DNA from: an uncultured Candidatus Saccharibacteria bacterium | GTDB taxonomy: Bacteria; Patescibacteriota; Saccharimonadia; CAILAD01; JADZBC01 | Length of the DNA stretch: 64,000 nucleotides | Assembly (NCBI GenBank): GCA_964413715.1 | Contig: CAYPSN010000001.1 | Coordinates: 10,613 to 74,612, forward strand | Direction: 5' to 3' | Shown: piece after piece, positions 31,589 to 33,952 of the stretch | Position numbering within the stretch: the first letter of the stretch is position 1 | Layout of the letters: each line of letters begins with the position of its first letter | Notes under the pieces: generated by a model | What the model was told of the DNA's origin: nothing | Seen by the model: only the letters and a program-made list of their open reading frames with translations | Database searches by the model: none | Made by a program: the position numbers and the translations under genes

Positions 31589-33952
31589 ATGCCAGAAAAA
31601 CATCCGCTCGTAGATCGCTATCCCCAGATGCCTGGTCAAAAGGATGTTAGACACGAAGTAGGGCGGATAACTCAACAGCGCAGACATCAGGTAGAATCTG
31701 GCGTCCCCAAAAAGGAAGCTCTAAAAGTACCTCAACGACCAGCCGAAAAAATTGATGCTTTTCTTGATGTACTCAAGAAAATTCATATGGTTCGCGACCC
31801 AAAGGTCACCGAGCGTATTAAGCAGTCCCTGCACCGTCAGTATTGTCTTGATCCCAGTAAGCCGATGCCGGACAGCTGGTTCCGCACTCAGGCGCAGATG
31901 GCCGAGGATCAGGGCCATGGTCTAAAAGATGATGTATATCGAACCCTCAAAGCTGCCTATGAGCTTGGTGGAGATGCTCGTAGTGAAGTCGAGACGCAAA
32001 AGCAGGCGTTGATTCGTGACCAAGAAAGCAGTCTGGACAAATGGTACGATTACTTATCAAGGCCAGATACCCCGTATCCGATGTGGTTTCGGTACTTCGC
32101 TTTCAAAAATGTGACGCAACTCGGTTCATACAGTAAAGAGACTCATAGCTTTGCCAGGCGGAGCAATGATACGGTTGGTGCCTTCCCAGAATTAAATGCT
32201 GAAGCCTTGGCGTACGTAGCAGAATCCCTTGCTCGCCACTATGGGTTAAGCATGATAGCCTCGGAAGACGATAAGGTGAATTTGGATGACCCCCGGATGA
32301 AAGACTTACTTAAAAGCCAGGCTAGTTTTGGCGACATGTACGCTCACGCGCTGGAATATTGTACTCCCGCTTCAGCCGAAATGCTGTCAGTAACAGATGG
32401 TAAATGGGTGACGAATCCCAAGGGTACACCAGGCATTGAGCTATCCAGCACCCTTGATGGACATGGCACGGGTTGGTGTGTGGCTGGTGAGAACTATGCC
32501 GGCCAATACTTGGCAGACGGCGACTTTATGGTGTTCTACACGAAAGACGCAGACGACAATTATTCCATCCCTCGTATCGGTATACCGATGAACGGTACAG
32601 CTGGCGAAGATAACTATTCAATACGGGAGGTGCGGGGTATTCGTGAAGGCCAGAATATGGAAGACGTCCTCAATGAAGTATTAGATGCTAAGCTGACTGA
32701 GCTACCAGGATCAGAAGAGTATATGTACGCGAGAGAGGATATGGCATACCTCACCGATATCTGGAAGAGACACACCAATGGCGAGCAGCTTAACGGGTAT
32801 GACTTAAGGTTCTTATACGAAATCGACCATGCAATTGTTGGCTTTGGTGAATATGAAGATCCGCGCATTGGAGAGCTGCTCAGAAGTCGAGATTGGATGA
32901 CTGACATGAGGGTTATTTATGAAGCTACGTCTGATAGTGACTTGGTTCTTAGACTGATTGATGCAGGTCGGGGCGATGCGGTAGCTCTCAACTTCGACAA
33001 ATTCTATGGCCTCGATGCTTCGGTAGCCAACAAGCTGATTGACGATGACTGGGGCAGTGGGGTAGCTCATTATCTAGACAGATTCCAAGGCCTCGATCAC
33101 ACTGTGGTCGCCAACAAACTGATTGATGTCGGGAGGGGAGGTGCGGTAGCTCGCAACCTAGACAAATTCCAAGGTCTTGATGCTTCGGTAGCCAACAAGC
33201 TGATTGACGATGACTGGGGCAGTGGGGTAGCTCATTATCTAGACAGATTCCAAGGCCTCGATCACACTGTGGTCGCCAACAAACTGATTGATGTCGGGAG
33301 GGGAGGTGCGGTAGCTCGCAACCTAGACAAATTCCAAGGTCTTGATGCTTCAGTAGCCAACAAACTCATTGACGCTGACTGGGGCGATGCGGTAGCTCGC
33401 AACTTAGACAAATTCCAAGGCCTCGACCACACAGCACTAGCCAACAGACTGATTGACGCCGGGAAGGTAGGTGTGTTACTTCACGATCTAGACAAATTCC
33501 AAGGCCTCGACCACACAGCACTAGCCAACAGACTGATTGACGCCGGGAAGGGAGGTATGTTACTTCACGATCTAGACAAATTCCAAGGTCTTGATGCTTC
33601 AGTAGCCAACAAACTCATTGACGCTGGGGAGGGCCTTGCGGTAGACCGTAATCTAGGCAGATTCCAAGGCCTCGATGCTTCAGTAGCCAACAAACTCATT
33701 GACGCTGGGGAGGGCTATATGGTAGCCCACCACTTAGACAAATTCCAAGGCCTCGATCATACTGAGGTCGCCAACAAACTGATTGATGTCGGGAAGGGAG
33801 GTGAGGTGGTTCGCAACTTAGACAAATTCCAAGGCCTCGACCACACTCAAATAGCTATTAAACTGATTGACACCGGGCAGAGAGGTGTGTTCCTTCGCAA
33901 CCTAGACAAATTCCAAGGTATCGATAATGCGGAAATCAATAAGCGGTTTTAG
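31589..33952 (+). CDS. large protein with about 330-aa novel N-terminal region and C-terminal array of 12 or more 27/28-aa tandem repeats (consensus LDKFQGLDxxvANKLIDxGxGgaVarN)
   Basis: 787 aa, no signal peptide. Repeats alternate between two variants, giving a 55-aa super-repeat. Confidence 0.7.
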   Translation: MPEKHPLVDRYPQMPGQKDVRHEVGRITQQRRHQVESGVPKKEALKVPQRPAEKIDAFLDVLKKIHMVRDPKVTERIKQSLHRQYCLDPSKPMPDSWFRTQAQMAEDQGHGLKDDVYRTLKAAYELGGDARSEVETQKQALIRDQESSLDKWYDYLSRPDTPYPMWFRYFAFKNVTQLGSYSKETHSFARRSNDTVGAFPELNAEALAYVAESLARHYGLSMIASEDDKVNLDDPRMKDLLKSQASFGDMYAHALEYCTPASAEMLSVTDGKWVTNPKGTPGIELSSTLDGHGTGWCVAGENYAGQYLADGDFMVFYTKDADDNYSIPRIGIPMNGTAGEDNYSIREVRGIREGQNMEDVLNEVLDAKLTELPGSEEYMYAREDMAYLTDIWKRHTNGEQLNGYDLRFLYEIDHAIVGFGEYEDPRIGELLRSRDWMTDMRVIYEATSDSDLVLRLIDAGRGDAVALNFDKFYGLDASVANKLIDDDWGSGVAHYLDRFQGLDHTVVANKLIDVGRGGAVARNLDKFQGLDASVANKLIDDDWGSGVAHYLDRFQGLDHTVVANKLIDVGRGGAVARNLDKFQGLDASVANKLIDADWGDAVARNLDKFQGLDHTALANRLIDAGKVGVLLHDLDKFQGLDHTALANRLIDAGKGGMLLHDLDKFQGLDASVANKLIDAGEGLAVDRNLGRFQGLDASVANKLIDAGEGYMVAHHLDKFQGLDHTEVANKLIDVGKGGEVVRNLDKFQGLDHTQIAIKLIDTGQRGVFLRNLDKFQGIDNAEINKRF
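32951..33949 (+). repeat. in-frame tandem coding repeat array (about 82-84-bp units, 165-bp super-unit), including a perfect 165-bp direct duplication at 33014-33178 and 33179-33343
   Basis: Direct reading shows identical blocks gatgcttcggtagccaacaagctgattgacgatgactgggg...caaattccaaggtcttga repeated back-to-back. Confidence 0.85.

Follow-up and report, generated by a model that had tools for sequence, protein, structure and literature searches.

Patescibacteria (the Candidate Phyla Radiation, CPR) have small genomes, and for most of their lineage-specific proteins no role has been assigned. Diversity-generating retroelements (DGRs) act on ligand-binding domains. In 2017 a few CPR proteins had already been connected with DGRs and a PcfJ-like motif, and among the DGR targets of the CPR Wu et al. 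2018 (PMC5758913) describe a category, g, in which a 'PcfJ-like protein' motif lies upstream of the variable region (VR). Here we describe a gene that invites comparison with those targets and departs from them in its C-terminal part. It is an open reading frame (ORF) of 787 aa with an ATG start, at 31589-33952 on the forward strand of a 64-kb stretch of contig CAYPSN010000001.1 (the window) from a Saccharimonadia-like bacterium, and it ends in a tandem array of 27/28-aa repeats. We read its product as a two-module protein, in which a constant PcfJ-like module at the N-terminus is joined to a C-terminal ligand-recognition module that has been diversified here by unequal recombination, and we give this reading a probability of about 0.55. 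What appears to be new is the size of the family and its spread through the phylum, the alternative C-terminal modules, a distinct 27/28-aa repeat and the recombinational dynamics of that repeat.

The N-terminal domain family and its C-terminal modules

The N-terminal domain is the constant part of the protein and extends over about 450 aa, not the ~330 aa that a sequence-only reading had assigned to an unrecognised N-terminal region. An exhaustive HMMER search over 1.84 billion cluster representatives placed it in a family of 1,530 clusters at 50% identity (E<=1e-3), 791 of them at E<=1e-30, and a genome scan found at least 569 loci with the domain in GTDB species genomes from many CPR classes. 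It is almost always N-terminal in the proteins that carry it and shows 35-45% identity across the phylum. Record titles are nearly all patescibacterial (Saccharimonadia, Parcubacteria, Kuenen-, Falkow-, Magasanik-, Andersen-, Moran-, Roizman-, Levy- and Shapirobacteria); the few unexpected taxon labels belong to short contigs and seem to be binning noise. The family appears to be essentially restricted to Patescibacteria, and searching phage and plasmid collections with the domain (tblastn) gave no match. Residues W296 and C297, which belong to the motif GHGTGWC(T/V)AGE, do not vary in either alignment, nor do P328 and R329; R333, E347-x-R349-G350 and Q355 are invariant or nearly so. Some Saccharimonadia genomes hold two paralogues of the domain (L009 and L010 on JBCLLN010000005.1; L011 and L013 in the metagenome-assembled genome JAKOQC01), in one case with some 8 kb between them on a single contig.

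Residues 1-449 match nothing in Pfam, NCBIfam, PHROGs or PADLOC, nor do they have a sequence relative in the PDB. The AlphaFold2 model of the domain is confident (predicted local distance difference test score, pLDDT, 91.3; predicted template-modelling score, pTM, 0.79), and Foldseek found no neighbour for it in the PDB (best E 2.4). A GNAT fold was considered and dropped: the overlaps were partial (~110 aa), the probability ~0.2 and the scores at noise level, and the Q-G-H-G-T-G segment fails as the GNAT 'QxxGxG' motif since the element that precedes it is a helix and not beta4.

Of 249 members extended C-terminally by 60 aa or more, 82 have 22/23-aa repeats resembling leucine-rich repeats (LRRs; LxLPExVGGxLxLxxLxSAEG), some of which match Pfam LRR_14; 76 carry a globular domain of ~220 aa of the type found in DGR targets; 39 (~16%) carry the 27/28-aa repeat solenoid; 14 carry a globular domain specific to Saccharimonadales; and 38 have other C-termini. 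This distribution points to a family that keeps its N-domain and exchanges its C-terminus. Homologues that lack the repeats, the finding named in advance as one that would tell against the sequence-only reading, make up most of the family, and what falls with them is solely the notion that the repeats define the protein.

Some of these C-termini are targets of retroelements. When the neighbours at 80 loci were clustered, the sole recurrent ones were a reverse transcriptase (RT; Pfam RVT_1, 4.1e-23) with the DGR-typical motifs GNLTSQ and YADD and a 128-aa four-helix-bundle protein that is Pfam bAvd (3.4e-15). A small upstream gene seen at L002, L004 and L005 was set aside as a conserved partner because the clustering, which for this question covered 78 loci, contained no recurrent upstream family. 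Five loci (L028, L065, L066, L071 and L079) have pairs of template repeat (TR) and VR of 133-143 bp, with one copy 3'-terminal in the family gene and the other near the RT gene, and the mismatches between the copies fall on adenines of the RT-proximal copy in 18/21, 15/16, 19/22, 18/19 and 25/25 cases. Such a bias towards template adenines is diagnostic of DGRs. Since RT, Avd and adenine-specific mismatches occur together, the globular C-terminus of these family members is mutagenised by adjacent DGRs. An RT gene is present at 14 loci, 13 of them with a DGR-type C-terminus (13/37) and one with the Saccharimonadales-type globular domain; it was found beside none of 32 LRR-like members and none of three solenoid members. 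The PcfJ-like DGR targets of Wu et al. would fit this family, as judged from their description. The window itself offers nothing comparable: tblastn with the family-linked RT and Avd proteins found neither in its 64 kb (best E 0.2), and in place of a TR/VR pair it has repeats that are head-to-tail coding units, the youngest pair of which is identical.

Two independent weak signals, one from fold and one from profile, point to PcfJ and make a remote relationship of the N-domain to PcfJ probable, short of membership in PF14284. Among the predicted viral structures of BFVD the best fold match is gp163 of Brochothrix phage A9 (E 8.4e-3, template-modelling score (TM) ~0.2), which carries Pfam PcfJ (PF14284, 4.8e-21), and the second best is a 'PcfJ-like protein' of Enterococcus phage EFDG1 (E 0.24). 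Our PcfJ alignment consists of 11 sequences, pCF10 plus ten phages, a homologue search with PcfJ having given near-identical Enterococcus sequences only. Aligned with it by hhalign, the N-domain profile gave P values of 0.012 (full length) and 0.0033 (core) over 94-96 columns, at a probability of just 3.6-9.7%, and placed in register GWC(T/V)AGE with HCV(A/G)S, GDFYVYYS with tIvFlR, and PR.AIRME...IAEVRGI..QN with P..TvEv...ivQ.RG..Nr. HMMER finds no match of the window protein to PF14284 at E<=10, and true PcfJ proteins score 65-149 bits against that model in the same tool. On pCF10 (L006, 35873-37983) pcfJ overlaps a gene annotated as 'Cas9 inhibitor AcrIIA9 family', and in Polaribacter phage Freya_4 (L096, 1-1431) a 'PcfK-like' gene stands directly 5' of the PcfJ-like gene; these neighbours of PcfJ in mobile elements may form a conserved gene pair, which could hint at an anti-defence context for PcfJ.

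The two-module reading takes as its starting points the architecture of the protein, the distribution of its family, DGR targeting of paralogues, recent duplications and a linkage to parAB that is not conserved, all of them observed directly. Ligand binding by the solenoid and an adaptive value of its variation are inferred from these, and so is any role of the N-domain, or of the family in defence, host interaction or regulation. The gene product would be soluble and probably cytoplasmic. Its first module (aa 1-449) would be a constant, distantly PcfJ-like domain with an invariant Trp-Cys; its second (aa ~450-787) would be an acidic alpha-solenoid of twelve 27/28-aa units, each shaped like a helix-turn-helix (HTH), with a putative role in ligand recognition. 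Throughout the family the constant module is kept and the C-terminal module is exchanged or diversified as an LRR-like array, a solenoid or a DGR-hypermutated globular domain. In the present lineage unequal recombination between units would add or remove whole units in frame, and each gain or loss would give a binding surface of different length and composition. The gene itself has landed in a variable slot behind parB and is probably co-transcribed with parAB.

Several points weigh against this reading. Family members have no known ligand, partner or activity, and an immune-sensor role is without direct support, no defence-system model in PADLOC giving a match. The relation to PcfJ is below significance (hhalign probability <10%, best fold E 8e-3); none of 66 family members has a Pfam match for the N-domain (PF14284) even at E<=10; and PcfJ is itself a protein without known function, so that the relation explains little. 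Solenoid members are never linked to DGRs, and the idea of a variable receptor is extended to them by analogy. Finally, the copy-number difference described below could be short-read collapse and not biology.

The alternative that survives best, though we think it unlikely, is a secreted or injected effector that acts on the host bacterium of the episymbiont, is exported by a non-Sec route and uses its repeats to bind a host protein. A repeat scaffold on a conserved domain is typical of effectors, and repeat-only proteins with other attached domains exist; the apparent restriction of the family to host-dependent Patescibacteria and the fast evolution of its C-termini would also suit such a role. 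The degree of N-domain conservation across the phylum is, however, unusual for effectors. Hydropathy agrees with the sequence-only reading that it has no signal peptide, and it has no transmembrane segment either (maximum Kyte-Doolittle 19-residue mean 0.8). Most members of the family are without an N-terminal extension, and secretion genes are absent from the recurrent neighbours at the loci examined.

The repeat array

At the DNA level the array bears the marks of repeated duplication. The match at period 165 is perfect across 33014-33351, or 2.05 copies, and Tandem Repeats Finder gives 84, 165 and 330 nucleotides (nt) as the periods over 32953-33925. The units are of two types, one of 27 aa ('GLDAS...') and one of 28 aa ('GLDHT...'), which alternate in the first six units only and are followed by HT-HT-AS-AS-HT-HT. 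In the matrix of nucleotide identities units 2 and 4 are 100% identical and units 1 and 3 97%, while unit 10 stands at 91% to units 2 and 4. A second recent event, the duplication of unit 6 or 7 (97%), had escaped the sequence-only reading. Duplications of such differing age argue that the array grew through repeated local duplication of one or two units. Much of what the sequence-only reading had said of this gene is upheld: the 787-aa ORF, the identity of the two 165-bp blocks (0 mismatches) and the minimum of 12 repeats (twelve units plus an 11-aa stub) are all as it gave them. Its 55-aa super-unit of alternating variants holds for the N-terminal half of the array and fails for the later units. 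Recent gain of units by recombination, which it also proposed, is supported by the perfect two-unit duplication, by the 97% one-unit duplication and by the greater likeness of units within a protein. Its suggestion of a contingency locus is lost in the on/off sense, because a change of 165 bp is one of 55 codons and leaves the reading frame intact.

That the array would be a hazard for assembly, another of the earlier suggestions, is demonstrated by other assemblies. A Logan short-read contig (SRR6747781) is 100% identical to the window up to 32999 and ends at the entrance to the array. An ENA contig assembled with MEGAHIT (k141; L001), with ~8 substitutions in 22 kb relative to the window (a 99.96%-identical genome), carries the same gene minus exactly one 165-bp block and encodes 732 aa; by an exact-sequence index two ENA contigs have this form and a single NCBI contig, of 204 kb, has the 787-aa one. 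JGI metagenome contigs scanned with a 35-nt tag from just upstream of the array gave 0 matches and hence no additional alleles of copy number. The difference between two blocks and one may be a real allele or a short-read collapse. The converse, that the perfect duplication in the window is an artefact of assembly and the true gene is the 732-aa form, is improbable in our judgement: the shorter form does occur on two contigs and the array does break another assembly, but assemblers normally collapse perfect tandem repeats and seldom invent them, the longer form sits on the 204-kb contig, and the array holds other genuine duplications of varied age (units 6/7 at 97%; unit 10 against units 2/4 at 91%).

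AlphaFold2 models aa 438-787 as a regular alpha-solenoid (pLDDT 94.3). Each predicted unit begins with G-L-D, continues with a 10-residue helix (xxVANKLID), an xGxG turn and a 6-residue helix, and closes with a short LDKF turn. A profile built from 266 units has the consensus GLDHAEIANKLIEAGQGWAVARNLDKF, with a conserved buried core (G1, L2, D3, A8, L11, I12, G15, V20, L24 and F27) and hypervariable positions at 5, 6, 9, 10, 14, 16-19 and 22. Similarity between units is 0.51 within proteins and 0.38 between them, reaching 0.62 within the window protein, and homologues have 2-17 detected units, as expected where arrays evolve through local duplications and losses. The repeat is also present in 29 proteins that lack the N-domain. 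Two such repeat-only proteins join it to other C-terminal regions, of ~200 aa in P0121 (522 aa) and ~350 aa in P0132 (558 aa), which makes the repeat a mobile module in its own right; a U-box at the end of P0121 was dropped, Pfam giving no support at E<=0.01.

The sequence-only reading had asked whether the repeat was of the HEAT, PBS-lyase or ankyrin kind. It matches no Pfam repeat family (HEAT, ARM, TPR, PPR, TALE, ankyrin or PBS-lyase HEAT-like), and Foldseek against the PDB returned generic solenoids (designed PPR, ARM, TPR) at E ~1e-4, with TM of 0.1-0.28 and rmsd above 16 A, so those suggestions are not sustained. The NCBIfam model TIGR04381 (TyrR/PhhR HTH) did reach 39.2 bits against a cut-off of 30 and was nevertheless rejected: the score sums partial repeat matches, and the best stretch covers only positions 25-42 of the 49-position model (aa 604-621). 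Automatic pipelines may be misled by it into a TyrR-type HTH label.

A role as a non-specific binder of nucleic acid, built from degenerate helix-hairpin-helix (HhH) motifs in the manner of the (HhH)2 arrays of topoisomerase V, seems to us very improbable. The unit does have the shape of an HhH motif and the units pair over 55 aa in the first half of the array; among relatives, P0126 (hairpin GLGPEVA) passes the Pfam cut-offs for HHH_5 and HHH_3 with 35.5 and 31.5 bits, and one member touches Topo-V_HhH_2_2nd at E 0.012. The score of P0126, though, adds up partial matches of 23 residues, of which none is significant by itself, and HHH_5 is matched by just 3/28 relatives, again through summed partial matches. 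Neither the window protein nor the family consensus has an HhH match, and no topoisomerase V or HhH array is among the top 50 fold matches in the PDB. In the window protein the second glycine of the hairpin is replaced by aspartate (G-L-D) and the repeat domain has an acidic surface (pI 5.4, net charge about -12); with the lack of any HhH match, these features led us to reject classical HhH DNA binding for it.

The slot behind parB and the rest of the window

The repeat gene follows parB closely (Table 1): its ATG comes 4 nt after the parB stop codon at 31582-31584. No terminator-like site was found between parB and the repeat gene in a terminator scan, which makes co-transcription with parAB probable, and no promoter of its own lies between parB and its ATG. 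The parA assignment rests on Pfam ParA/CbiA/AAA_31 matches to the identical gene of L001. Third-position GC content of the repeat gene resembles that of its neighbours.

Table 1. Coordinates of the repeat gene, its parts and the flanking features in the window
Feature	Position	Strand	Remarks
Promoter-like site	29895-29923		ahead of parA
parA, 255 aa	29943..30710	+	first gene of the likely transcription unit; context only
parB, 295 aa	30697..31584	+	ParB_N, HTH_ParB, ParB_C; directly upstream of the repeat gene
Shine-Dalgarno GGAG	31576..31579	+	9 nt 5' of the ATG; read from the sequence
Variable slot, parB to lepB	31585..34087	.	flanks 91-93% identical to JGI contig L099, inside unalignable
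Repeat gene, whole	31589..33952	+	787 aa; predicted cytoplasmic; pI 5.2
Conserved N-terminal domain, aa 1-449	31589..32935	+	Patescibacteria-wide family; probably remotely PcfJ-like
Repeat array, 12 units of 27/28 aa	32948..33952	+	aa ~453/454-776 plus 11-aa stub; predicted alpha-solenoid
Perfect 165-bp duplication, copy 1	33014..33178	+	two units, 55 codons; 0 mismatches
Perfect duplication, copy 2	33179..33343	+	block missing from the 732-aa form P0001 / L001
Units 6 and 7 (33419-33502, 33503-33586)	33419..33586	+	older single-unit 84-bp tandem duplication, 97% nt identity
lepB (signal peptidase I)	34088..34939	-	convergent; L099 synteny resumes at its stop codon

The sequence-only reading had linked the gene tentatively to chromosome segregation through its tight coupling to parB. 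The short gap stands, at 4 nt and not the 5 first counted. A functional bond is not supported. At 80 homologous loci in GTDB species genomes parB was found within 5 kb of none, and the question of whether homologues are always linked to parAB is answered by that figure; a weak parA-like gene, on the opposite strand, was seen at one of the 80. Three homologues that share both the N-domain and the type of repeat lie in unrelated neighbourhoods, none of them linked to parAB. The JGI contig L099 is syntenic with the window (GGDEF, acetyltransferase, LIP, membrane protein, L21, parA, parB, slot, lepB, lytR, membrane protein, htrA), and its ParB is 99.7% identical, yet its parB and lepB are separated by a glyoxalase gene and a gene for 282 aa. 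Homology to this contig stops at window position 31583 and resumes at 34088, with no alignment inside. Since synteny with L099 brackets other genes at this place, the repeat gene occupies a variable slot. It has no conserved relation to parAB, and a role in segregation is not supported.

A segregation accessory, that is, a scaffold or adaptor working with ParB, is therefore the least probable of the readings and can be put aside: the 4-nt gap, the Shine-Dalgarno site, the lack of an own promoter or a terminator in between and the weak matches of some repeat homologues to a DNA-binding motif (HhH) are outweighed by the empty parB count, the unlinked same-repeat loci, the different genes in the slot behind a nearly identical ParB, and an acidic repeat domain whose hairpin is G-L-D and not G-h-G.

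Alignment to L099 also breaks at a second variable slot, 23823-25476, where the window and L001 have ORFs of 433 aa and 58 aa without a Pfam match and L099 instead has, on the opposite strand, a gene for 173 aa. Upstream of the parAB genes, 26428-27021 (+) encodes, in this reduced Saccharimonadia-like genome, a stand-alone GGDEF protein (diguanylate cyclase) of 197 aa with a short coiled-coil N-terminus, which is kept in L001, L098 and L099. Farther downstream, between 47.6 and 50.2 kb, GC content is 57.5% against ~48% elsewhere. This segment contains genes for two stand-alone proteins of 147 and 143 aa that end in RNA_pol_A_CTD (47975-48415 and 49691-50119, both on the minus strand; 3.9e-10 and 1.3e-13), with an ORF of similar size and no Pfam match between them (49117-49533, minus strand); it is possibly a foreign island, or else a group of transcription modulators. 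In the whole window (1-64000) ARAGORN found no tRNA gene and no Rfam family reached its gathering score. GC skew is positive across all 64 kb.

Implications and comparison with described systems

A previously uncharacterised repeat protein is now tied to a family of 1,530 clusters and at least 569 loci, with confident models for both of its domains, and the combination of a constant module with a variable recognition module gives a hypothesis that can be tested. Adjacency to parAB is unfit as a basis for functional annotation of these genes. If the N-module, with its invariant Trp-Cys, were a signalling or effector enzyme, the family would represent an innate-immune-like or host-sensing system specific to ultra-small symbionts, and the orphan PcfJ domain of phages and plasmids would gain a functional context if that were true. 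A broader view, which we offer tentatively, is that Patescibacteria possess phylum-wide intracellular 'variable receptors', in which one constant PcfJ-like module is joined to a recognition module that the lineages diversify along three unrelated routes: DGR mutagenesis of a globular domain, LRR-like arrays and recombination within solenoids.

Of the described systems that invite comparison, HhH arrays too are built from a helix, a tight glycine-containing hairpin and a second helix, and their units pair, as do those in the first half of the window array; the window repeat differs in having no connector helix, a G-L-D hairpin, an acidic surface and no HhH array among its fold matches.

In the alpha-solenoids (PPR, armadillo/HEAT, TPR and TALE), as in the predicted window solenoid, each unit contributes two antiparallel helices to a stacked superhelix, a conserved core is combined with variable exposed positions, and the number of units evolves by tandem duplication. 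The unit is shorter here (27/28 aa against 33-35 in TALE, 35 in PPR, 34 in TPR and ~40 in ARM/HEAT), and TM values of ~0.2 indicate a different superhelical geometry. The signature GLDxxxIAxxLIxxGxGxxVAxNLDKF is not that of a described repeat.

In the hhalign alignment PcfJ (PF14284; E. faecalis pCF10, Herelleviridae and other phages) has in common with the N-domain an order of motifs over ~95 residues, [H/W]-C-[V/T]-[A/G]-[S/G], a hydrophobic beta-strand, P..T/A-[IV]-E/R and I-x-[QE]-V/A-RG-x-x-x-[QN], and in both the domain adjoins long helical regions. It lies at or near the C-terminal end in PcfJ proteins and inside a 449-aa N-terminal module in the window protein; the PcfJ proteins belong to mobile elements of Firmicutes and Bacteroidetes, whereas the window family is chromosomal and patescibacterial.

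The DGR-targeted members of the family, among which the PcfJ-like CPR targets of Wu et al. may belong, have a globular C-terminus with the VR at its extreme 3' end and with TR, RT and Avd adjacent, whereas the window protein has a tandem-repeat solenoid and no RT, Avd or TR within 64 kb. Their N-domain is homologous to that of the window protein, with 35-39% identity over ~435 aa (E ~1e-77), and both have the same plan, a constant N-module followed by a variable C-module.

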